From an uncultured Candidatus Bathyarchaeia archaeon (GTDB taxonomy: Archaea > Thermoproteota > Bathyarchaeia > 40CM-2-53-6 > CAYOZM01): a stretch of DNA of 64,000 nt. Shown here one piece after another: positions 9,802-51,141 of this stretch. The DNA is taken from assembly GCA_964533795.1 (NCBI GenBank), contig CAZHMI010000001.1:51869-115868 (forward strand), written 5' to 3'. The number at the start of each line of letters is the position of its first letter. The first letter of the stretch is position 1. The notes beneath the pieces are model-generated. The model did no database searches. It had not been told where the DNA came from and saw only the letters and a program-made list of their open reading frames with translations. Both the position numbers and the translations under genes were made by a program.

Positions 9802-11421
9802 ATGAAGTCTGGAAAAGGGATTCTTTTACTCCTCTTAATTATTGCAGCAACTTTCTTGGTATTTTCAAGCTCCGTTGAAGCAGCAGTTCCCCCTCAACTC
9901 AAAGCATCTAAGACCATAACGCCAAGCTTTGCCAAGGCTTCCAACGATCTTACAATAACGATACGCCTCGAAGGTATCGGCGAGCCTGCATTGGCTCCTA
10001 CGCCCGCAGATATCGTGCTTCTCGTAGATAGATCGGGCAGCATGAAAGGCCAGAAGCTTACTGATGCTAAAACTGCGGCGAAGACCTTCGTGGATCTGCA
10101 AGGGTCGAACAATAGGGCTGAACTCATCTCTTTCGCAGGTACGGCCATAATTGAAGTGCAGTTCACAAGCATGACTGCAGACGGCAAGACTACGGTCAAG
10201 AATGCTATCGACAAGTTGACCTCGGTTGACAAGACCAATATCTATGAGGCGATACAGAAAGCGAATAGTGAACTTGAAACTAAGGGCAGAGATAACGTTC
10301 TACTGGTTGAAATCTTACTAACAGATGGAAGACCCACCACCGGAAACACGGATGCCGATGACATAATAGATTTAGCTGTTAGCGCTAATGCGACGGGAAT
10401 TCGAATCTACACAATCGGATTGGGCAACGATGTCGACGCAAACTTGTTGAGCAGTATCGCTAACGCGACTGACGGCAAATACTATTTCGCGCCCACGAGC
10501 GCAGACCTCCAAGCGATCTACACAGAAATTTCTGAGGAAATTTCGAAGATAGTTGGAACCGACATTAAAGTTCGTGAAGAGTTGCCGACAACGCTTGTCA
10601 CATACAACAACGATGCGACAGTCGCGCCTTCAAGCGTTCAAGATGGGAAGTTGACTTGGAATGTAGGAACATTGGACGTCGGCGACATATGGCAAGTCAC
10701 GTTTACTGTGCACGCCATTAAAGACGTTCTCGTCGATGCCACTGTTGTTCAAGCTAAGGTCGAATACATCTTAGCAGGAGCGTCTCAAACTATGAATCTC
10801 ACACCAGGCATAATCGTCCGCGATTTTTCTGCTGTCGAACAGGTTGCCTCAAAGACATCGGCAACTGTTGGCGAAGTAGTTCAAGTAAATGTCACCGTGA
10901 AGAACCTCGGCACAAAGTCTGAAACTTTCAGTGTTGGAGCGTACTATAACGATCTATCCATCGCCACTCGCACGGTTACATTAAGCGCCGGAGCCTCCTC
11001 CGTCCTCACTTTCAATTGGAATACCACGAACGTTGCACCTGGAACCTACAACATATCAGCAAAAGTTGATACCGGTAATGCGCTTACCGAAACCAACGAG
11101 ACTAATAACGTCTGTTTGAAGCCGCTCTATGTAACGATTACGACAGGCGGCGAAGGATTTCCTTTTCTGCTTCTTGCACTTCTCGCCGTTTTCATTGCTA
11201 TCGCCGTTCTCCTCCCCGTACTAGGGATCGCTGGAAGAGGAGCCCCACCGCCAGCAAGACCCCCGGCTGCTCGACCGGTGAGATGGGTTCCCCGTTTTAG
11301 ACCTAGTCGCGGAATTGGATTCTGGAGGAGGAGGGTTGTCTGTCCAATCTGCCTCATGCCAGTTCAATACGATCCGGCTTCCAAACGATGGTACTGTCCA
11401 TACTGCCGGCGGTACTGTTAG
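9802..11421 (+). CDS. Secreted/membrane-anchored vWA-domain protein with CARDB-like Ig domains and a C-terminal TM helix followed by a proline-rich segment and a cytoplasmic zinc ribbon
   Basis: Signal peptide; a vWA MIDAS region (LLVDRSGSM...LLTDGRPT); CARDB-like segments ending ETNETNN; a hydrophobic stretch FPFLLLALLAVFIAIAVLL; then PPPARPPAARP and CPICL...CPYCRRYC. Confidence 0.75.
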   Translation: MKSGKGILLLLLIIAATFLVFSSSVEAAVPPQLKASKTITPSFAKASNDLTITIRLEGIGEPALAPTPADIVLLVDRSGSMKGQKLTDAKTAAKTFVDLQGSNNRAELISFAGTAIIEVQFTSMTADGKTTVKNAIDKLTSVDKTNIYEAIQKANSELETKGRDNVLLVEILLTDGRPTTGNTDADDIIDLAVSANATGIRIYTIGLGNDVDANLLSSIANATDGKYYFAPTSADLQAIYTEISEEISKIVGTDIKVREELPTTLVTYNNDATVAPSSVQDGKLTWNVGTLDVGDIWQVTFTVHAIKDVLVDATVVQAKVEYILAGASQTMNLTPGIIVRDFSAVEQVASKTSATVGEVVQVNVTVKNLGTKSETFSVGAYYNDLSIATRTVTLSAGASSVLTFNWNTTNVAPGTYNISAKVDTGNALTETNETNNVCLKPLYVTITTGGEGFPFLLLALLAVFIAIAVLLPVLGIAGRGAPPPARPPAARPVRWVPRFRPSRGIGFWRRRVVCPICLMPVQYDPASKRWYCPYCRRYC

Positions 11422-39197: not shown

Positions 39198-42100
39198 CTA
39201 CATATAGTCGCTTAATCCACGTTGTTCATGTTCGCGCCTACGCTCTTGAAAGAGAGAATCAATCTCCTTCTCAATCAAAAGGAGCCTCTGCCAATAGTAC
39301 CAAAGATTCTCATCCCTGAAATCTGCATACGCAACCTTACTCGCCTCTAAGTCTGTTCGACCAGTTCCATACTTCAAGATGAGTTCCTTAGCAACCTCCA
39401 GATACTTCTCAATTGTGCCGCGATAAACTGTTAGCGAGATCTTGCCGCCGCATTTAGGGCATATTCCGCGTAGAGGAACCCGCCTAAACTTAGCGTTACA
39501 CTTTACACATCTAAGCTTCTGACTTGAGAAAGCCTTCAAATTCCCCGTAACATCACGCATAAAGTGAGTGGACAGAACTTTCCTAGCAACTTCACCGGCG
39601 TTAACAGCTTTAATCTTCTCTGCTAGACCAAGTTGCTCTCTAACCTTCTCCAGCATAGACCCTAATTTCTTATAGGTGCTCTCATGATTCCCAACGTTGA
39701 TGTCGCCAACTCTGTGCGTGAAGCCCCAAGACTCAAATTGATCCTCTTTACCCAGCCTGTGATACACCGTTTCAATGAAATCCGTTGCAACTCTAGGGTC
39801 CGTCCCTCGGGCAGCCTCCTCAAAGAAGACGGTCGGAAATCCGTCAACCACCTCTATGTTAGTAGCTTGACGAGCAACTTCAGACGGGTTAATAACCAAG
39901 GTTAAGAGCAGGGGGGCATCCATTAATCCGCCAATCTTAGCAGGGAGGAAGGCCCTAGAGAAATTCAAGAGCACGTCCAAAGCTAGGATCAATGCGTCCT
40001 CATCTCCATCGCAGTCACGTCTTTTCGCGGCGTGCCAGAAGGGGTGAGCGAAGCAAGCATTCGCCTTCGTAAACCCTATGATCCTACCAGCCACACCAAC
40101 AGATGTGTGTGGTGATAGCCCTATGACCATGTGGCCAACGAGATCGTCCTTAGATCGAACCTTATAGTAAGCAGGCAGCCCATACAACCGCTCAAGAAGC
40201 TCGTCAAGGAATCCAGCAACTCTGACGAAATATTCTGCGCACGTATCTGGAATTATTACGTCCCCAACCTTAATGGCGCAAAGCTGATCATCGCTAGCTA
40301 GGTCCTCGCCATCCATATCATAATCGTAGCCTAAGCCGCGGATCTTCCGAACAGGAACCCCCACTTCCCTTGGCTTGAAGTGCGTCAAAGGACAGTTCGT
40401 TGCATCGAAACGTACCGTTCCATCCTTGAAAACAGAAAGATTGTACTTAGCCCTTAGAATTCCCTTTTCGATGGGTTCAGGCACTCTGTTACCACTCGTT
40501 AGCCCTCTAACGCCCTTCACGACTTCGAGAGACTTCTCGACGCGAAGTCGGTTACACGCAGAATCAAAGATGTCCTTGAGGTCGATCGTTCTCCTCTCAT
40601 AAGAAACCACGGGAATTTTGCAAGCTGGACAAATGTCTTGCGGAAAGCTTCTTCCACAGTTAGGGCAGGCACGCTCGATTGAAGCCTCTACATGACACTT
40701 AGGACATGAAACTAGGTGCATTAACTCCTTACACGCGGGACAACGCCGCCTCACCAGCTCAACAGCAATCATTTGCTTAGTCGCAGCCGCCTCAACGATG
40801 TTCCTTCTTGGTCCGCCAGAGAGGCCAACCGGAAAGAGACAGTGAACTACTGGCCGCATTTCTCTGCGTTTAGCTTTCTCAGGTCGGCCCATTCTCGCTC
40901 CAACGAAAGTTGGGGCTTTATCATGAATCTTCACGCCAGACAGTTTGCTCGCAAGCTCCACGGTAGAGCTAGCGTCAAGTTCTCCATCGCCAACTTCCTT
41001 ATGCAACCCCAAACATCTATAGATGATCGCGGCTTCATCGTCAATCCTTATGATTTCGCCGGTCAGAACGTGTGGTATACAGAGCGTTTCAAGGGTTGCC
41101 TTCAACTCAGGGTTAAACTTCACCTCCACCTTAACCGGGAAAGCGCCTTCATGCTGAAATGCGGCAGAGCCGAAATATCGGCGAAGATTCTTGAACTCGT
41201 CGATCGATACGCTTCCCCAGAAATACGTGTATCTCGGATGCAACGGGATGCCTAGGGTATCAGATAGTTTAAGCGCCTCAATTGGCGTAGGTTTAGCCTC
41301 AAGAGCATCGGAGAGTAGGGAAGCGAGCCGCGGCTCCTCTATCTCGGTCTTCAACGCAATTTGCGATATAGATAATCCAGAGGCCTTGACGGCGCCGACA
41401 AGGAGTTCGCCCCACCACTCTTCTACGAACCCAGAAGGAACCAAAGGACGGTTGTTCTCAAGAAACTCTCCAAAATCAACAAGAAGATCGCCTAGAAACA
41501 GTATAGCTTCAACTGAACCAGCAACCCGTTCAGCAGTCTTCAAATCTTCAACCCGAAGAACCGCCCCATCATTCAGTCTTACGATTGGAGGCTCAATGGA
41601 CTCAACCGGAAGCACCACCCCCGCTTTCCCAGGCTTCTCTATCCGCAATTGTGTTCCAGCTGCGATGAAGCCCCCCAAAATAGCCATTGACGCAGGATGA
41701 ACGCCCAAAGCGGCCAATCCAGTATTCCTGGAACGGCCGTAGCGAAGTCTAAACCCTCCAGCAGACGCGGGAAAAGAGAAGATGGGTCTGCCTGCAACCA
41801 CATCTTCCATGTACATGAACTCACGAACTTCCTCATTCTCCGTCGTAGGCGGCCTTATCTCTCTCAGCCAGCCCCAGCCGCCGATCCCGAGCTTCTCCAC
41901 TATCTTCAGGACCTTCTGCGTTCTCCCAACGAGTCCATCGTTAACGACCCGTAGTGCACCTCCGCGAACGCGGTTCGTTTCAATTCTAGGGAGATTCCTG
42001 AAAGAAGCCACTTCGATAGGGTCTGTCTCTACACCGTTGACTTCAACAGGCAGATTCAACACGGCGTTGATAAGTTCTCTGTCAGAGAGCTTGTATTGGA

Positions 42101-42695
42101 AACGTGCAACTTCTCTTTCATAGAGCCTCAGCTCCTCTACGAATCTTCTCGCCTCCATCTCTGTACTCTTGTATCTATCCAACCCGAGTAAACGCCTGAC
42201 GAAGTCCGCGACGATAAGAATAAGAGCCATCTCCGTCCCTCCTGCTGAACGGATAGGACCCGCGAAATAAACCGCCAGATACTTGGTCTTATCCGGATTC
42301 GTCTTTATCCTAACGCTAGATATTCCTTGAATCGGAGCGACCGTGACGCCTTCATCAAGGATTCCCAAAGCTGTTCGAATGGCTTGCTCAGCAGCAGCCT
42401 CCCCTGAAACGCCAAATCTTCCGTAAACTATCTCCTCAGCAACCTTGAAAGCCAACTCTTCCCTAGGCATCAGTTTGCTGAGCTCACGAATTCTCGTAGC
42501 TATTTCAGGTGGCCCAACCGATTTTTCAACTCGCTCAGCTAAATCCAAGGTGACGATTGATTCTGGCTGAGAAGCAGGATCAAGCCCTTTCAATCGAGCC
42601 TGTTTAGCTATCGAGGCGATCTCCTCGAAGTCGCGTTCGAGCTTCAAGAAGTATTCTTCTTGAAGCTTAAGAAGGGGGCTCTCCAAAATATGCAC
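39198..42695 (-). CDS. DNA polymerase II (PolD) large subunit DP2, intein-free
   Basis: 1165 aa; N-terminal LAERVE.LVGP..IA.RIREL region; central zinc-finger cysteines (CPACK...CPKCH...CPNCG...CPACK; CVKCNAKF...CPKCGG). Confidence 0.9.
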   Translation of the reverse strand: MHILESPLLKLQEEYFLKLERDFEEIASIAKQARLKGLDPASQPESIVTLDLAERVEKSVGPPEIATRIRELSKLMPREELAFKVAEEIVYGRFGVSGEAAAEQAIRTALGILDEGVTVAPIQGISSVRIKTNPDKTKYLAVYFAGPIRSAGGTEMALILIVADFVRRLLGLDRYKSTEMEARRFVEELRLYEREVARFQYKLSDRELINAVLNLPVEVNGVETDPIEVASFRNLPRIETNRVRGGALRVVNDGLVGRTQKVLKIVEKLGIGGWGWLREIRPPTTENEEVREFMYMEDVVAGRPIFSFPASAGGFRLRYGRSRNTGLAALGVHPASMAILGGFIAAGTQLRIEKPGKAGVVLPVESIEPPIVRLNDGAVLRVEDLKTAERVAGSVEAILFLGDLLVDFGEFLENNRPLVPSGFVEEWWGELLVGAVKASGLSISQIALKTEIEEPRLASLLSDALEAKPTPIEALKLSDTLGIPLHPRYTYFWGSVSIDEFKNLRRYFGSAAFQHEGAFPVKVEVKFNPELKATLETLCIPHVLTGEIIRIDDEAAIIYRCLGLHKEVGDGELDASSTVELASKLSGVKIHDKAPTFVGARMGRPEKAKRREMRPVVHCLFPVGLSGGPRRNIVEAAATKQMIAVELVRRRCPACKELMHLVSCPKCHVEASIERACPNCGRSFPQDICPACKIPVVSYERRTIDLKDIFDSACNRLRVEKSLEVVKGVRGLTSGNRVPEPIEKGILRAKYNLSVFKDGTVRFDATNCPLTHFKPREVGVPVRKIRGLGYDYDMDGEDLASDDQLCAIKVGDVIIPDTCAEYFVRVAGFLDELLERLYGLPAYYKVRSKDDLVGHMVIGLSPHTSVGVAGRIIGFTKANACFAHPFWHAAKRRDCDGDEDALILALDVLLNFSRAFLPAKIGGLMDAPLLLTLVINPSEVARQATNIEVVDGFPTVFFEEAARGTDPRVATDFIETVYHRLGKEDQFESWGFTHRVGDINVGNHESTYKKLGSMLEKVREQLGLAEKIKAVNAGEVARKVLSTHFMRDVTGNLKAFSSQKLRCVKCNAKFRRVPLRGICPKCGGKISLTVYRGTIEKYLEVAKELILKYGTGRTDLEASKVAYADFRDENLWYYWQRLLLIEKEIDSLFQERRREHEQRGLSDYM

Positions 42696-45103: not shown

Positions 45104-45502
45104 TTGACCAAGAAACAGTTTGAAACATTCATTATCGATCTGTTGGGAACCCAATTTTCCACGCAATCTCGCGGAAGAATAAGAAAACTGAGAACTAGGA
45201 CAGATACACTCAAGATATCAAGAGGCGCATTCAACAGGACCTTGAATCAAGCGAAAGTGAACGTCGTCAGATCCATCTACACGCTCTTTCTACTCGGCTA
45301 TGCTGGAGTTTTCGACACCCCTCAACTAGGTCCCTTCATCGAGTTGGCAGACAACATAAAAGCATATCTCGAAGAGAGAAAGACGGCCGCGGAGCACGTT
45401 GGTGACGAAGAGTACAAAAAAGCAGTTCAAGACATATCAAAGAAACTGGCAGAGCTCATAGAAAACCTTGCTGAACGCCCTGCGTCCGCGGACGGACTGT
45501 GA
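45104..45502 (+). CDS. Hypothetical protein
   Basis: ORF only; no motifs recognised. Confidence 0.3.
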   Translation: MTKKQFETFIIDLLGTQFSTQSRGRIRKLRTRTDTLKISRGAFNRTLNQAKVNVVRSIYTLFLLGYAGVFDTPQLGPFIELADNIKAYLEERKTAAEHVGDEEYKKAVQDISKKLAELIENLAERPASADGL

Positions 45503-45806: not shown

Positions 45807-46511
45807 TTGAACTCAGTGGACTGGGCGGTTTCTGCTTTCGTTGGCCTAGCGCTGTCTGTTGGCGTTCTTCTTCTGGCGTTGTCTATGCGCTATAGGCGCG
45901 ACCGACGATTGTTCATGGAATCGAAGGACCTTGTCGGCGGAGTTGTTCGAGTTTTCAGTGGCCGGCTCCAAGAGCAGGGGGAAATGCTAGTTGCACTGGA
46001 GGGAACCGTGCGCCGAGTCTTGAAGACGCAAGAGGAACAGCAAGCAAGACTGGAGAAGATTACAGAGCATATGGCGCAATCGATGGATCTCCAACAACGA
46101 TCAATAGGAGTATTAGCAAGACTTGGACGAAAGGTCACCCAGCTTTTGCCCATTTCTGCTTCGAAAGAAAAGGAAGGCGCTCTGCAGGAGTTAGTGGCGA
46201 GCGAATCTGTGACGCCTATTGATGTCGCGCTCTCAAGGTTGACTCCCACTGAATTAAAGGTCCTACAATTGCTTGTCATGGAGGGCCCACTACCATCTCC
46301 GAGTATCAGAATGACCATCGGAAAGTCCAGAGAGCATACGGCGAGGCTGATGAAAAGACTCTACGAACAGGGCTACGTAGATCGGGAGACGTCAAGGATT
46401 CCTTATCGATATAAAGTGAACGACAAGATACATGGCGTATTAGAGAAGAGGGAGAAAGAACACATTAAGCAGAAGGTTGAACGACAGGCCCAGGAGAAGG
46501 GGGCTGCTTAA
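45807..46511 (+). CDS. Membrane-anchored coiled-coil protein with C-terminal winged-helix domain
   Basis: N-terminal TM (AVSAFVGLALSVGVLLLAL), then a coiled coil, then LTPTELKVLQLLVMEGPLPSPSIRMTIGKSREHTARLMKRLYEQGYV (MarR-like wHTH). Confidence 0.45.
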   Translation: MNSVDWAVSAFVGLALSVGVLLLALSMRYRRDRRLFMESKDLVGGVVRVFSGRLQEQGEMLVALEGTVRRVLKTQEEQQARLEKITEHMAQSMDLQQRSIGVLARLGRKVTQLLPISASKEKEGALQELVASESVTPIDVALSRLTPTELKVLQLLVMEGPLPSPSIRMTIGKSREHTARLMKRLYEQGYVDRETSRIPYRYKVNDKIHGVLEKREKEHIKQKVERQAQEKGAA

Positions 46512-46935
46512 CGGCATAGCGCCATTCGTTTGACGATCCGGATCGTGTGATCAGGCCCCTGTCGACAAGCCTTGAAAGGTAAGTGGAAACCGTACTGAGC
46601 GCAGGACAATCAGCATAGACCATTTCATACTCCCTTTGAACATCCTTTGACGAAAATATTCGGTCAGAGAAGCGGCCGAGCACGAGCGCCGTCAAGCGGT
46701 CAAATTTGTTACTGGGGGCAGAGAGGAGTGTTCTATCAGAGGAAACTCCGCCCGCGGTCCCCGCCATGAGTTCCATATAATCCAGCAGCTGAGAGATCTT
46801 TTCCCGGGTGATTTGTCCTTCGACAGTGACCGTATGCTTTATTCCACGGTCGTCTGTAAATTGAATTCTCACTTTCCTTTTTACCATAAGGAAGCCAGGT
46901 CTGCGGCTGCGCAGTTTCACTAGCTTCATGTTCAC
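46465..46935 (-). CDS. Hypothetical protein with C-terminal winged-helix motif
   Basis: LSTVSTYLSRLVDRGLITRS recognition-helix-like segment. Convergent overlap with the preceding gene. Confidence 0.35.
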   Translation of the reverse strand: MNMKLVKLRSRRPGFLMVKRKVRIQFTDDRGIKHTVTVEGQITREKISQLLDYMELMAGTAGGVSSDRTLLSAPSNKFDRLTALVLGRFSDRIFSSKDVQREYEMVYADCPALSTVSTYLSRLVDRGLITRSGSSNEWRYAVKQPPSPGPVVQPSA

Positions 46936-47442
46936 ATGCTTAAAGAATTTTCGGTGAATTTAGCGGAGGATGCAGGTAAGACGCAGAAGGTGCGCATGAG
47001 TCTCCAGTGGAAAAACATACGTTCCAGTGGAAATAAAGGGGTCTCTGACGTAATTCACAGCTGGAGTAAAGAAAAGTGACTCGTTGACTCGAAAGAGAAC
47101 CAAAATAGAAAGAGTTTTCCGCTTGTGAAGTGTCTTCGCGAACATCTAGACTCGCCCTTCGTTTCAATTGGAGACCTGCTAGGGCCAAAACTTGTGTCTT
47201 CAGGCCAAGAGCGAGTATTTAGTACAGGATCGTAAACGCCGTCTTTTTTACCTTAAGCTTGCGACTAACCGTTTGGAGACTATACAATATTCTAACACCA
47301 TACTCCAAAACCACCAGGAGGCTCCACTCGAAAAGTAGGGGTGCGGGGTATAGTTTCCTCTTGTTCCTCATCTCCTTTCCTGTACAATATTGGTTAATAT
47401 ACTTCCACTCGAAACACGACGGTTACCTTTGGAGGGCCTTCT
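46936..47442. promoter_or_regulatory. Candidate replication origin (oriC) with ORB-like repeats upstream of orc1/cdc6
   Basis: Tandem boxes CTCCAGTGGAAAAACATAC (47002-47020) and TTCCAGTGGAAATAAAGGGGT (47022-47042). The second carries the G-string. Further related boxes are TCCACTCGAAAAGTAGGGGTGCGGGGT (~47323) and TTCCACTCGAAACA (~47404), and TACAATATT is repeated twice. Confidence 0.6.
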
Positions 47443-48690
47443 GTGTCTGGCAAAACCCTAGAAGGAATCTTCGATAAGTTTCTCTCTGGCTCGACGATAT
47501 TCCTAGACAGAAATGTTCTCAGACACGACTATGTTCCTGGAACACTCCCGCACCGAGACGAACATATTCACAGACTCGGTGGAATACTAGGACCAGCGTT
47601 GAACTCATCGAAAATATCAAACATATTCCTCTATGGCAAGACGGGAACAGGAAAGACAGCGGTAGCAAAGTTCGTTCTCTCTCGCCTTGAGCGCAAAGCG
47701 CAGGAAGTGGGGGTTCCTCTAGGAAGCGCCTACGTGAACTGTAGGTTGGCAGGGACTAACTATAGGGTCCTAGCTGAGTTATGCCGAGCGGTTGGGGCTG
47801 AAGTACCCTTCACGGGGCTTGCAGTCGGGGAACTTCTTGATCGCTTTCGCGAAGCGTTGAGCCATACTGGATCCCCGCTCCTAGTTGTTCTAGACGAAAT
47901 AGATGCATTAGTCCGGCGGCAGGAAGACGATGTTCTTTTGTACGAACTGACGCGGATTAACGAAACGCTGAGGCGAAGCTGGGTTTCTCTCATTGGTGTG
48001 TCTAATGATCTTCATTTCAAAGAGTTTCTCGACCCTCGCGTTTTAAGTTCCTTGAGCGAAGAAGAAGTAGTGTTCAAACCGTACTTAGCGGACGAGCTGT
48101 ACGACATTCTTTCTGAAAGAGCGGGGACGGCGTTTCGGCCGGGTACGATGCACGATGCGACACTGCGGTTGTGTGCAGCATTAGCAGCTGGTGAGCATGG
48201 CGATGCGCGCAGAGCCCTCGATCTTCTTAGAGTGGCGGGAGAGATAGCGGAGAGAGAAGGTTCTTTTGCAGTTACGGAACAACACGTCAGGCTAGCCCAA
48301 CAGAAAATTGAACGAGATCGTGTTTCTGAAGTTCTGAAATCTCTTCCAGTTCACTCAAAGCTTTTGTTGACAGCGGTTCACTGCATCAGCATCAAGCTAC
48401 CTGATGGCGCGGTGACAGGGGATATCTACGAGGTCTACAATGAGCTGTGTAGTCAGGCCGGGATCGAGCCGCTAACTCAAAGGCGGGTCAGCACGCTTGT
48501 GAGCGAGTTAGACGTCATGGGCATCCTTAACGCCCGGATCGTTAGTTTCGGTAGATACGGAAGAACGAAGAGGATCCGCCTAGCGGCTTCAAGCAAAGCC
48601 ATTATAGAAGTATTCTCAGAGGATAGTCTAGTCGGGCGCCTACTAAAACATGTTCCAAGATGCCTCAAGCAACGTAAGAGTAGCCCTTAG
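47443..48690 (+). CDS. cdc6: Orc1/Cdc6 replication initiator (AAA+ with C-terminal winged helix)
   Basis: Walker A LYGKTGTGKT, Walker B LLVVLDEID, sensor regions and a C-terminal wHTH. Confidence 0.9.
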   Translation: MSGKTLEGIFDKFLSGSTIFLDRNVLRHDYVPGTLPHRDEHIHRLGGILGPALNSSKISNIFLYGKTGTGKTAVAKFVLSRLERKAQEVGVPLGSAYVNCRLAGTNYRVLAELCRAVGAEVPFTGLAVGELLDRFREALSHTGSPLLVVLDEIDALVRRQEDDVLLYELTRINETLRRSWVSLIGVSNDLHFKEFLDPRVLSSLSEEEVVFKPYLADELYDILSERAGTAFRPGTMHDATLRLCAALAAGEHGDARRALDLLRVAGEIAEREGSFAVTEQHVRLAQQKIERDRVSEVLKSLPVHSKLLLTAVHCISIKLPDGAVTGDIYEVYNELCSQAGIEPLTQRRVSTLVSELDVMGILNARIVSFGRYGRTKRIRLAASSKAIIEVFSEDSLVGRLLKHVPRCLKQRKSSP

Positions 48691-49252
48691 AACAGTCGGA
48701 GTAGACGACGGAGGATTTCAATCACACTGGTCCTCGATTGGCAGAAAAGGCAAAGCCGTTCTCGCAGCCGTCCTGTTAAGTGATTACTGGATTGACGACA
48801 TTCGCGTTGGAGAGATAACGGTTGACGGGCTAGATGCCACCGTTATTCTCGCAAAGCTTCTCACCTCTTGGGAGTTTGACGCCGTACTCCTAAGCGGAGT
48901 ATCCTTCGCCGGCTTCAACCTTATAGACGCGGAGACCATCCACAAGACGTTTCGGAAACCGGTTGTAATTGTTTCGGGAGACAAGCCAGACAACGTAGCG
49001 GTGAAGAAAGCCTTACAGAAACATTTCACGGATTGGGAGACAAGATGGAAGATCGTCAAGAAACTTGGTAGAATCTATCGCGTAGCTCCAAAAGTTGCGG
49101 AGCCTCCTCTATACTTTGAGGCGGTTGGGTTAAGCGCCAAATCGGCGAGGTTGATGATACGGGCTTTAGCCGTTTCCTCACGACTTCCGGAACCCATCAG
49201 AGTAGCGCGACTCCTCGCGCGCGGCTTGACGCGGCAGGGTGATGGCGCTTAA
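48650..49252 (+). CDS. DUF99/UPF0215 family protein (endonuclease-V-like fold)
   Basis: GVDDGGF near the N-terminus is typical of DUF99. It abuts orc1 and polD-DP1. Confidence 0.5.
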   Translation: MFQDASSNVRVALRTVGVDDGGFQSHWSSIGRKGKAVLAAVLLSDYWIDDIRVGEITVDGLDATVILAKLLTSWEFDAVLLSGVSFAGFNLIDAETIHKTFRKPVVIVSGDKPDNVAVKKALQKHFTDWETRWKIVKKLGRIYRVAPKVAEPPLYFEAVGLSAKSARLMIRALAVSSRLPEPIRVARLLARGLTRQGDGA

Positions 49253-50776
49253 CTATTGCGGGGATGTGAAGTCCATCATATGTACCTCCAGCGTTTGGAG
49301 GTTTAGGAGCGGCAGCATTCCAGGAGTAGGGTCGAGACCCATCTTCCTCTGGTAGTCAGTTTGCGCCTGCCAAGCCCCGCAGTTCACAACGAGGGTTCCG
49401 CGGTAGGTTTCATACTTGGTGACGTGTATATGACCTGATTGAAATACGTCCGGCGGGGTTTCCACGACAAGATCGTCCTCTGCTTCTGGCGCGATCGTAG
49501 TCCTTTTGCCGTACTCGGGCGCTAGATGCCTGCATTTGAGTAGGAGCTCCATCGCCTTCTCTGGGGTTTGAAAGCTGAGATTAGGGAAAGTTGCTACAAC
49601 ATCATCTAAACTTCTTCCATGATAGAGTAGAAAGTGTACATTGTGCAATTTTATTTCCGCTGGATTTCCTAGCGATATGACGTCTCTAGACGTGTAGATT
49701 GGGTCAGCGAACTCTCTCGGTATCGCAGGTTGCGGAAGCGCTTGTCTAACCGCGTCATGGTTACCAGGAATCAAGACGACATCTATGTAGTCTGGTATCT
49801 GTTCTATGTATTGCGCGACTAGTTTGTACTGCTCACGGGCATCCTTTATGCTCAGTTCATCCTCTTGCCTTGGATACACGCCGATTCCGTCAACCAAGTC
49901 TCCAACAATTATCGCATATTTCGTGCTCTCCGCGATCTCTGTTTGCTTCTGCCCCCCTATCTTTCCGTTGAGCCAAAGGACGAAACGATTGAAAGCATCC
50001 TCCAAGAAAGTTCTGCTTCCTACATGTATGTCGGAGAGAAGGGCTGCATAGACCGGCTCATCAGCGCGGTTAGCTCTCTTCTCGGGTATGTCAGGCAGGA
50101 TTATGTTTTGGCCTACGAACAAGTCTTCTCCTGCTCTGGTTGCTTCGATGCACACAACTTGGTCCAGCGGTGTTCTCTGTGCCGCCTCGACTAAAAGGCG
50201 GTCAGCTTCTGCTGGAATCAATACGGTAGCTACGTTCTCTAGGTCGTCAACTTGGAGAAAAATTCTTCTTCTCTTCTCCCTCTTCTCCATAACCATCGCG
50301 ATGAACTTCACTTTTTCGTTTAGGGGGGCTTCCAACGCTTCGCCGATAGTCCTCGCGTCTCTTACATCCAACCTTTCTCGCAGAATTCTACTGATCTTAT
50401 TGAATCTGTCTCGGAAGTGTTTGGTAAAGTCTTCTATGGTACCGCCTGACCCTATCACCTTCGTCGGGTCCCGTAGGATTTGAATTCTACTTTCCACTTC
50501 CTTCGCATAAGGAACTCGCGCTCTTAACGATTCCGTGGTTGGTGGCGTCACTAACTCCTTTTCCTTTCTCAGCCTCGCCGTAACACTCTCAACAATATCT
50601 TTCGTTACCATGATCGCCCTCGGTGTCAGCTGATTTGCTTCTTTGACTATCTCTTTCGTTACTTCCTCTAGCTCCTCTCGGTCTTGTAGGAGCTTCAGGA
50701 TCTCAAAGGCTTCTCTATCCAGCTGATATCCTGCCAAGAGGATTGTTTTGACCGCGGTCTTGAGACGCTCTGACAA
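49253..50776 (-). CDS. DNA polymerase II (PolD) small subunit DP1 (calcineurin-like exonuclease)
   Basis: Phosphoesterase motifs (LSDIHVGS; VGDLVDG; IPGNHD; LYHG; GHIH) and a DP1-type N-terminal region. Confidence 0.85.
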   Translation of the reverse strand: MSERLKTAVKTILLAGYQLDREAFEILKLLQDREELEEVTKEIVKEANQLTPRAIMVTKDIVESVTARLRKEKELVTPPTTESLRARVPYAKEVESRIQILRDPTKVIGSGGTIEDFTKHFRDRFNKISRILRERLDVRDARTIGEALEAPLNEKVKFIAMVMEKREKRRRIFLQVDDLENVATVLIPAEADRLLVEAAQRTPLDQVVCIEATRAGEDLFVGQNIILPDIPEKRANRADEPVYAALLSDIHVGSRTFLEDAFNRFVLWLNGKIGGQKQTEIAESTKYAIIVGDLVDGIGVYPRQEDELSIKDAREQYKLVAQYIEQIPDYIDVVLIPGNHDAVRQALPQPAIPREFADPIYTSRDVISLGNPAEIKLHNVHFLLYHGRSLDDVVATFPNLSFQTPEKAMELLLKCRHLAPEYGKRTTIAPEAEDDLVVETPPDVFQSGHIHVTKYETYRGTLVVNCGAWQAQTDYQRKMGLDPTPGMLPLLNLQTLEVHMMDFTSPQ

Positions 50777-51025: not shown

Positions 51026-51141
51026 GCCGGGATGGCTGAGTGGTTAAAGCGACGGCCTCGAGATCTTTATACGGATGGGCCTGACAGGATAGCCGTTGGG
51101 CGCTTGCGCCCTCGAGGGTTCGAATCCCTCTCCCGGCGCCA
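51026..51141 (+). tRNA. tRNA-Ser (anticodon CGA), type II long variable arm, ~28-nt intron in the anticodon loop, encoded CCA
   Basis: Acceptor stem GCCGGGA/TCCCGGC; D arm GCT-GAGTGGTTAA-AGC; anticodon stem ACGGC/GCCGT with loop CTCGAGA, interrupted by an intron at ~51064-51091; variable arm GGGCGCTTGCGCCC; T arm GAGGG-TTCGAAT-CCCTC; then G-CCA. Confidence 0.7.

Follow-up and report, generated by a model that had tools for sequence, protein, structure and literature searches.

A candidate Orc1-1-type chromosomal replication origin upstream of orc1/cdc6 in a Bathyarchaeia archaeon

Origin recognition boxes and the adjoining initiator gene

The analysed window is a 64-kb stretch (64,000 nucleotides) of contig CAZHMI010000001.1 from an uncultured Candidatus Bathyarchaeia archaeon, in which a non-coding region separates a gene for a winged-helix protein from the replication initiator gene orc1/cdc6. 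Five origin recognition boxes (ORBs) lie within ~415 bp directly upstream of orc1, in the order + + - + +, and make the locus a candidate origin of chromosomal replication (oriC). The region, the boxes with their position weight matrix (PWM) scores, and the initiator gene are as follows.

46888..47442, no strand: full non-coding stretch separating the winged-helix gene from orc1, the candidate origin region; upstream start revised
47001..47016, plus strand: ORB1, a mini-ORB (TCTCCAGTGGAAAAAC) without G-string; PWM 16.2 bits; 84% identity to relatives vs 42% for the adjacent spacer
47021..47042, plus strand: ORB2, a full ORB with G-string (GTTCCAGTGGAAATAAAGGGGT); PWM 31.2 bits, the top site of the window
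47153..47174, minus strand: ORB3, an inverted ORB (TCTCCAATTGAAACGAAGGGCG) with degenerate G-string; Common pattern 17/20; PWM 17.0 bits
47321..47342, plus strand: ORB4, a full ORB with G-string (GCTCCACTCGAAAAGTAGGGGT); Common pattern 17/20; PWM 25.9 bits
47402..47415, plus strand: ORB5, a mini-ORB (CTTCCACTCGAAAC); PWM 15.6 bits; 93% identity to relatives
47443..48690, plus strand: orc1/cdc6 of Orc1-1 type, 415 aa, GTG start; Pfam AAA, Cdc6_lid and Cdc6_C; TIGR02928 410 bits

An earlier, sequence-only reading of this DNA had reported tandem boxes at 47002 and 47022. The element TCCAGTGGAAA is indeed found at 47003-47013 and 47023-47033, and the reported positions hold once the pyrimidine in front of each copy is included (CTCCAGTGGAAA, TTCCAGTGGAAA). 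The G-string described after the second box is present as AAAGGGGT at 47035-47042, and the two degenerate boxes are recovered as copies of TCCACTCGAAA, one at 47323-47333 with GTAGGGGT behind it, the other at 47404-47414 with only ...ACGGT. The count of four boxes was one short: the repeat finder revealed the inverted ORB3 (TCCAATTGAAACGAAGGGCG, 47153-47172, minus strand), which is the box that defines the inverted pair ORB3(-)/ORB4(+). At the G-string positions +15 to +19, ORB2 and ORB4 read GGGGT and ORB3 reads GGGCG; the counterparts of ORB3 in relatives carry GGGGA or GGGGAG at the same place.

The clustering of these boxes is apparent from three scans of the window. The loose pattern TCCANTNGAAA matches six times in 64 kb, five of them here; the expectation for the entire window is 0.91, and not one of 100 shuffles yields as many as six. 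The 'Common' ORB expression of Ori-Finder 2, TCCA[CG]T[TG]GAAA[TC][GA]AAGGGGT (PMC4164010), is matched by ORB2 at 20 of 20 positions (47023-47042). An ORB motif scan had been proposed as a check on the origin, and with this expression at up to three mismatches it yields three matches in the window, all within the region, against 0.04 expected. Furthermore, a PWM trained solely on distant loci, with an Orc1 no more than 70% identical to that of the window, ranks the five boxes as the five best sites in 64 kb, the best site elsewhere scoring 12.5 bits. The sole other exact match to TCCANTNGAAA in the window is a lone TCCAATTGAAA core at 11010-11020 on the minus strand, followed by a weak purine-rich tail (PWM 12.4 bits).

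The shorter sub-repeats that had been described as recurring do exist as copies, but they are weak as elements in their own right. ACTCGAAA has seven window matches vs 3.4 expected; of its three local copies, the one at 47087 lacks conservation and the other two are simply parts of ORB4 and ORB5. TACAATATT has two matches vs 0.27 expected, and only the copy at 47383 is kept in relatives. Both were rejected as separate elements, being parts of ORB4/ORB5 or unconserved.

The initiator gene adjoins the boxes, beginning 28 bp past ORB5 at 47443, the position given for it earlier, with a GTG codon; four close relatives have ATG at the aligned position. In comparisons with the PDB, the protein is far closer to two initiators crystallised on ORB DNA, Sso Orc1-1 (2qby_A, E 2.9e-118) and the ORC1 of A. 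pernix (2v1u_A, E 1.2e-113), than to Orc1-3 (1.8e-57) or the Cdc6-2/ORC2 type (~1e-24). In the alignments Walker A (GKTGTGKT) and Walker B (VLDEID) are conserved, and the VPFTGL segment, the LCAALAA-EHGDARRALDLLR helix with the sensor-2 region (GDARR), the TQRRVS recognition helix and the GRYGRTK wing are all present. By these comparisons the protein is assigned as an Orc1-1 orthologue.

The 507-bp gap first delimited at 46936-47442 is non-coding, as had been stated, but its extent was underestimated. For the upstream minus-strand gene, ATG 46887 is the likeliest start rather than GTG 46935, since homologues of 130-144 aa align from ATG 46887; the non-coding stretch therefore reaches 46888 and measures ~555 bp. 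Rfam returned no RNA over the region, neither at the gathering threshold nor at E<=1, and no tandem repeats were detected in it. Small open reading frames (ORFs) within the region (82, 61 and 72 aa) were ruled out as coding because close relatives differ in them by one-base indels, and the 204-aa and 42-aa calls in contigs L004 and L002 were dismissed on the same ground. A sigma-70 promoter and terminator scan of the region was set aside as not applicable to archaea.

Conservation, spacers, promoter and neighbouring genes

The closest named Orc1 homologues belong to Candidatus Bathyarchaeia, and even the best species-representative genome is just 70% identical in Orc1. Four metagenomic contigs are much closer (Orc1 87-95% identical) and have the orc1-Endo_dU-DP1 core in common; the contigs that reach further upstream (L001/L002, L003; L001 from JGI 3300031862, L003 from ENA ERZ781360) carry DP2, Elf1, NAD synthase and CN-hydrolase in the order of the window. 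In the closed Bathyarchaeia chromosomes CP070791.1, CP070828.1 and CP070730.1, orc1 begins near 1,160,573, 246,023 and 801,852, respectively. All five boxes are kept in the four close relatives, with 72-93% identity, compared with 42-59% and one-base indels in the spacers.

For a wider view, 80 orc1 loci were fetched from species-representative genomes, nearly all Bathyarchaeia, with Orc1 52-70% identical; together with six close-relative contigs they make up 86 loci. Across these, the density of the TCCA-N3-GAAA core is 2.33 per kb within 1 kb upstream of orc1 vs 0.092 per kb elsewhere, and class-wide sites of at least 14 bits outside that upstream 1 kb amount to just 0.03 per kb. Positions +15 to +19, which are unconstrained in the core search, read G-G-G-G-T in 71-86% of boxes; the G-string is therefore independent evidence for true ORBs. 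The +/-/+/+ layout recurs upstream of orc1 across Bathyarchaeia, at these positions relative to the gene.

About -420 to -630, plus strand: distal ORB
About -270 to -414, minus strand: inverted ORB
About -122 to -204, plus strand: proximal ORB
About -41 to -61, plus strand: mini-ORB, in most loci, immediately after a TATA-like element

One locus, L019 (JBAUBP010000188.1), has its ORB triad at -3188 to -2875 from orc1, beside the homologue of the winged-helix gene. With the origin ~3 kb from orc1, DNA appears to have been inserted between them, the origin having stayed with the winged-helix gene. Five contigs with an archaeal orc1 stand under the names of bacterial metagenome-assembled genomes (L013, L016, L024, L033 and L065; Dormiibacterota, 'bacterium', Acidoferrum, Omnitrophota and Sulfotelmatobacter). 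They are probably mis-binned archaeal contigs; L013 and L016 carry Bathyarchaeia-type ORBs.

Two spacers separate the inverted box from its neighbours.

47043..47152, no strand: spacer A, from ORB2 to the inverted ORB3; GC 41.5%, poorly conserved
47175..47320, no strand: spacer B, 146 bp, between ORB3(-) and ORB4(+); GC 44.5%; presumed unwinding and helicase-loading region
47266..47278, plus strand: a non-ORB motif in spacer B, TAACCGTTTGGAG (class pattern T[AT]AC[CA]-N4-RGAG); 82% identity in close relatives

Across 49 Bathyarchaeia loci spacer B varies little in length (median 160 bp; clade of the window, 146 bp) and is the most AT-rich segment, its GC content being 26% where the locus has 42%; the distal spacer, at 34% GC, is both longer and more variable. 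In other Bathyarchaeia spacer A varies between ~100 and 250 bp and is less AT-rich than spacer B. Positional homology makes 47175-47320 the probable unwinding and helicase-loading region; the assignment relies on position because spacer B of the window is only 44.5% GC.

The motif within spacer B, whose pattern was derived post hoc, is found in plus orientation in spacer B of 25 of 60 loci, an enrichment of ~100-fold. In 25 of 26 copies it lies 57-66 bp before the proximal ORB, and TATAT follows it in many relatives. Within the presumed unwinding region it might bind a factor or serve as a promoter. A similar element, TTACCTTTGGAG, is seen in the orc1 leader at 47423-47434. One conceivable, though unlikely, extension is that Bathyarchaeial origins possess a lineage-specific accessory system, in which the spacer-B motif would be bound by the 140-aa winged-helix protein or another factor and would serve a role like that of ucm/UBP in Sulfolobales, or would give an origin-proximal transcript that aids opening where the spacer is not AT-rich.

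The stretch between ORB4 and the initiator gene has the appearance of a promoter and a leader.

47343..47393, plus strand: G-rich, then pyrimidine-rich block ending in TGTACAATATT; 88% identity, 80% invariant columns; overlaps the least stable DNA
47394..47401, plus strand: putative orc1 TATA box, TTAATATA; 100% invariant in relatives; archaeal promoter consensus
47416..47442, plus strand: orc1 5' leader with a Shine-Dalgarno-like GGAGG at 47432-47436; 88% identity

Both the (T)nGTAC element before the TATA box and a TTTAT or TTAAT directly before the mini-ORB, at the position of the TATA box, are found class-wide. The transcription start of orc1 is placed at ~47423, ~25 nt past the centre of the TATA box, and ORB5 thus lies directly after the TATA box and ahead of the predicted start. 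This arrangement indicates that ORB5 is likely an Orc1 operator and suggests negative autoregulation of orc1, because Orc1 bound to ORB5 would occupy the site of pre-initiation complex assembly.

The genes on either side are listed next, together with the putative promoter of the divergent one.

39198..42695, minus strand: PolD large subunit DP2, 4.2 kb upstream of the origin; PolC_DP2 domains (N-terminal, central, catalytic)
46465..46887, minus strand: 140-aa winged-helix protein, divergent from orc1; listed as ORF 46465-46935
46936..46960, minus strand: promoter-like element of the winged-helix gene, TTCACCGAAAATTCTTTAAG; 72% invariant columns; presumed promoter role
48650..49252, plus strand: Endonuclease dU (PF01949, formerly DUF99); E 1.3e-47; overlaps the 3' end of orc1 by 41 nt
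49253..50776, minus strand: PolD small subunit DP1; NF003118 493 bits; convergent with orc1

The DUF99 gene described after orc1 is confirmed as Endo_dU, which follows orc1 on the plus strand in 28 fetched loci. The 41-nt overlap (48650-48690) is also found in close relatives; together with the conserved order it suggests that the initiator is co-transcribed with a dU-specific repair nuclease. DP1 is adjacent, as had been noted, but it is encoded on the minus strand and converges on orc1, so that the genes do not form an operon; it is present in 75 of the 86 loci and on the minus strand in 70 of the 73 counted for strand. DP2 was also correctly recognised, at a distance of 4.2 kb and not 5 kb, and occupies the same position in L001, L003, L008, L009, L011 and L012.

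The divergent winged-helix gene has a tblastn match beside orc1 in 63 of the 86 loci (minus strand in 60 of the 62 counted for strand). Its family, restricted to Bathyarchaeia, lacks any Pfam domain and bears no annotation beyond 'hypothetical'. The AlphaFold2 model consists of an N-terminal beta-beta-alpha module and a C-terminal winged helix-turn-helix (HTH) with pLDDT 85-90. The fold search returned merely generic winged-helix regulators of the RosR/PadR/MecI type, and searches of Pfam and NCBIfam just sub-threshold RepC/MarR-like HTH matches. Two further genes lie on this side of the origin: a 132-aa ORF without family match (45104-45502, plus strand), found on the same side in 41 of the 86 loci, and a 234-aa gene product (45807-46511, plus strand) with a hydrophobic N-terminus and a TrmB/MarR-like winged helix, kept in 50 of them. 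The 132-aa, 234-aa and 140-aa genes form a conserved origin-flanking cluster. On the other side, a tRNA gene at 51026-51138 (plus strand; Rfam 52.7 bits) has a long variable arm of the Ser/Leu type and an anticodon-loop intron of ~28 nt, and was missed by ARAGORN.

Proposed function of the locus and alternative readings

The earlier proposal of an oriC at this place is supported by the ORBs with their G-strings, the Orc1-1 neighbour, the inverted pair, the conservation of the boxes, the class-wide layout and the synteny. Among the features that characterise archaeal origins of this type, clustered ORBs, a G-string at fixed spacing, an adjacent initiator and conservation in relatives are found here. 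An inverted ORB3/ORB4 pair is present as well, and the spacer it encloses is AT-rich in most Bathyarchaeia, whereas here it differs little from the window as a whole (44.5% vs 47% GC). Furthermore, orc1 keeps DP1, the winged-helix gene and other genes beside it throughout the class, an association that speaks for a chromosomal locus. We therefore assign a probability of roughly 85% to the reading that the locus is a chromosomal origin of the oriC1/Orc1-1 type, coupled to the promoter of orc1, the gene for its initiator.

The mechanism we propose is drawn by analogy with Sulfolobus, Aeropyrum and Pyrococcus. Orc1 monomers would bind each ORB with a defined polarity, the winged helix contacting the TCCAnnnGAAA dyad and the initiator-specific motif (ISM) of the AAA+ domain contacting the G-string side. 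The inverted ORB3(-)/ORB4(+), with their G-strings pointing outward, would bracket the 146-bp spacer 47175-47320, and ATP-bound Orc1 would recruit minichromosome maintenance (MCM) hexamers at spacer B, where the DNA would open and bidirectional replication would begin. ORB1 and ORB2 may be auxiliary sites of high affinity, comparable to ORB1 in Sulfolobus oriC1, and Orc1 on ORB5 could block assembly of the pre-initiation complex and thereby repress its own synthesis.

Several observations weigh against an origin in use at this position. The clade of the window has no strongly AT-rich unwinding element, spacers A and B having 41.5% and 44.5% GC where the window has 47%. No marked unwinding element is seen between the ORBs, the DNA of lowest stability being the promoter block 47349-47405; the least stable windows of 30-50 bp start at 47349-47375 and fall in the top 0.3-0.7% of the 64 kb. 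The extremes of cumulative GC skew are located off the locus, at 39.0 and 54.4 kb, but skew and Z-curve are uninformative over 64 kb because they mainly track gene strand; the mean GC skew is -0.012 to the left of the locus and +0.019 to the right, in a window too short to judge. Finally, Thermococcus kodakarensis keeps a canonical oriC and yet can replicate without it (PMC5663688); having an origin is therefore no proof of its use.

The lack of a marked AT-rich element and the origin-independent growth of Thermococcus would also suit the view that the ORBs are operators only, for orc1 and the divergent winged-helix gene, and that the origin is dormant or vestigial, with replication starting elsewhere or by recombination. 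ORB5 does lie inside the orc1 promoter, no more than ~60 bp separate ORB1 and ORB2 from the promoter-like element of the divergent gene, and Haloferax mediterranei is known to have dormant origins (PMC4595724). Simple autoregulation, however, needs no five sites over 415 bp, and it leaves unexplained the inverted pair of full ORBs, their class-constant spacing and the strong AT-richness of the spacer in most relatives, while the architecture fits experimentally mapped origins. We consider a purely regulatory role improbable.

Archaeal replicator-initiator pairs often come from extrachromosomal elements (review PMC4010727), and a tRNA gene lies 3.6 kb downstream; the pair could in principle belong to an integrated plasmid or virus rather than to the chromosome. 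Such a provenance is very improbable in view of the same orc1 and ORB layout being found with DP1 (75/86), the winged-helix gene (63/86), the TrmB-like gene (50/86) and the 132-aa ORF (41/86) at Orc1 identities of 52-70%, in the company of the housekeeping genes for PolD DP1 and DP2, NAD synthase and Elf1. Moreover, no integrase or viral gene was recognised among the 12 neighbouring ORFs scanned against Pfam (39.2-51.9 kb). The idea that short intergenic repeats have merely clustered here by chance is refuted: the 8-9-mers ACTCGAAA and TACAATATT are merely marginally over-represented, but none of the 100 shuffles reaches the observed count, the 20-nt consensus is found three times vs 0.04 expected, and the boxes are conserved in relatives and class-wide.

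Bathyarchaeia are abundant, uncultured sediment archaea. No paper in the literature searched joins 'origin recognition box' with 'Bathyarchaeota', and by their titles and abstracts those that combine 'Bathyarchaeota' with 'oriC' concern no Bathyarchaeial origin. To judge from its boxes and initiator, the locus is a canonical, well-understood ORB-type origin in a class for which the literature yielded no origin description. The arrangement is otherwise a textbook one and will not surprise the specialist. A confidently placed origin anchors genome coordinates and permits growth rates to be estimated from metagenomic coverage (peak-to-trough ratio), and the locus supplies a defined Orc1-ORB pair for biochemistry.

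Comparison with known archaeal origins

The 22-bp ORB of Aeropyrum pernix presumably has the same core-to-G-string spacing as the boxes described here, and the initiator at its oriC1 is orthologous (PDB 2V1U, E 1.2e-113). Haloferax volcanii oriC1 is likewise orc1-adjacent and intergenic between divergent genes, has DP1 nearby, and carries ORBs close to the euryarchaeal consensus GTTCCAGTGGAAAC-AAA----GGGGG (PMC1868953). It differs in that halophile ORBs have an extended second G-string and in its long AT-rich DNA unwinding elements (DUEs), set in a 1,360-bp intergenic region.

The Thermococcales oriC shares with the window the core TTCCAGTGGAAAT, which is identical in the P. furiosus ORB1/ORB2 oligonucleotides (PMC1904270), and a linkage of the origin to cdc6 and PolD DP1. 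The arrangement ORB(-)...AT-rich...ORB(+) with outward G-strings is seen directly in the Thermococcus locus L085, where two long ORBs, ORB(-) at -1457 and ORB(+) at -1202, enclose DNA of 18-26% GC; origins of this order have been mapped experimentally (PMC1904270; PMC4010727). In contrast to the window, the G-string of Thermococcales lies 9 nt further from the core (GAAACTCTGGGGG), DP1 is co-directional there and convergent with orc1 here, and many more mini-ORBs are present, along with a second ORB cluster inside dp1 (PMC1904270). No comparable ORB cluster was found in dp1 of the Bathyarchaeia loci; dp1 of the window (49253-50776) has no PWM site of at least 8 bits and one weak core match, at 49664. 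L085, which comes from a Thermococcus sp. metagenome-assembled genome, shows mini-ORB-like boxes at +1474 to +1896 from cdc6, where Matsunaga et al. place the dp1 cluster.

The closest parallels are with oriC1 of Sulfolobus/Saccharolobus, which has an orthologous initiator (2qby_A, E 2.9e-118) and, like the locus described here, lies immediately beside orc1-1, with the presumed unwinding region bracketed by an inverted ORB pair. In Sulfolobus the ORB3-DUE-ORB2 segment spans ~130 bp, the unwinding element lies between the inverted ORB2 and ORB3, each of which is essential on its own, and initiation takes place at the DUE-ORB3 junction (PMC12141716). The differences concern the number of boxes (five here vs three there), the spacer, which is not AT-rich in the clade of the window, and the Sulfolobales motif ucm, ATTATACAAAC (PMC12141716). 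The latter has no match at up to two mismatches in 46888-47442, and in the window it is matched 10 times where 14.6 matches would be expected; the position-fixed T[AT]AC[CA]-N4-RGAG is found instead. The likeness of the boxes to Pyrococcus and Sulfolobus ORBs, proposed in the sequence-only reading, is borne out by the P. furiosus core and, above all, by the S. islandicus ORB oligonucleotide TTTCCAGTGGAAATAAAGGGGT, which served work on Orc1-1/MCM recruitment (PMC12890983, citing Samson 2016). The 22-mer of ORB2 is identical to that oligonucleotide at 21 of 22 positions, with one base differing, and this near-identity points to a deep conservation of the Orc1-1/ORB recognition code.

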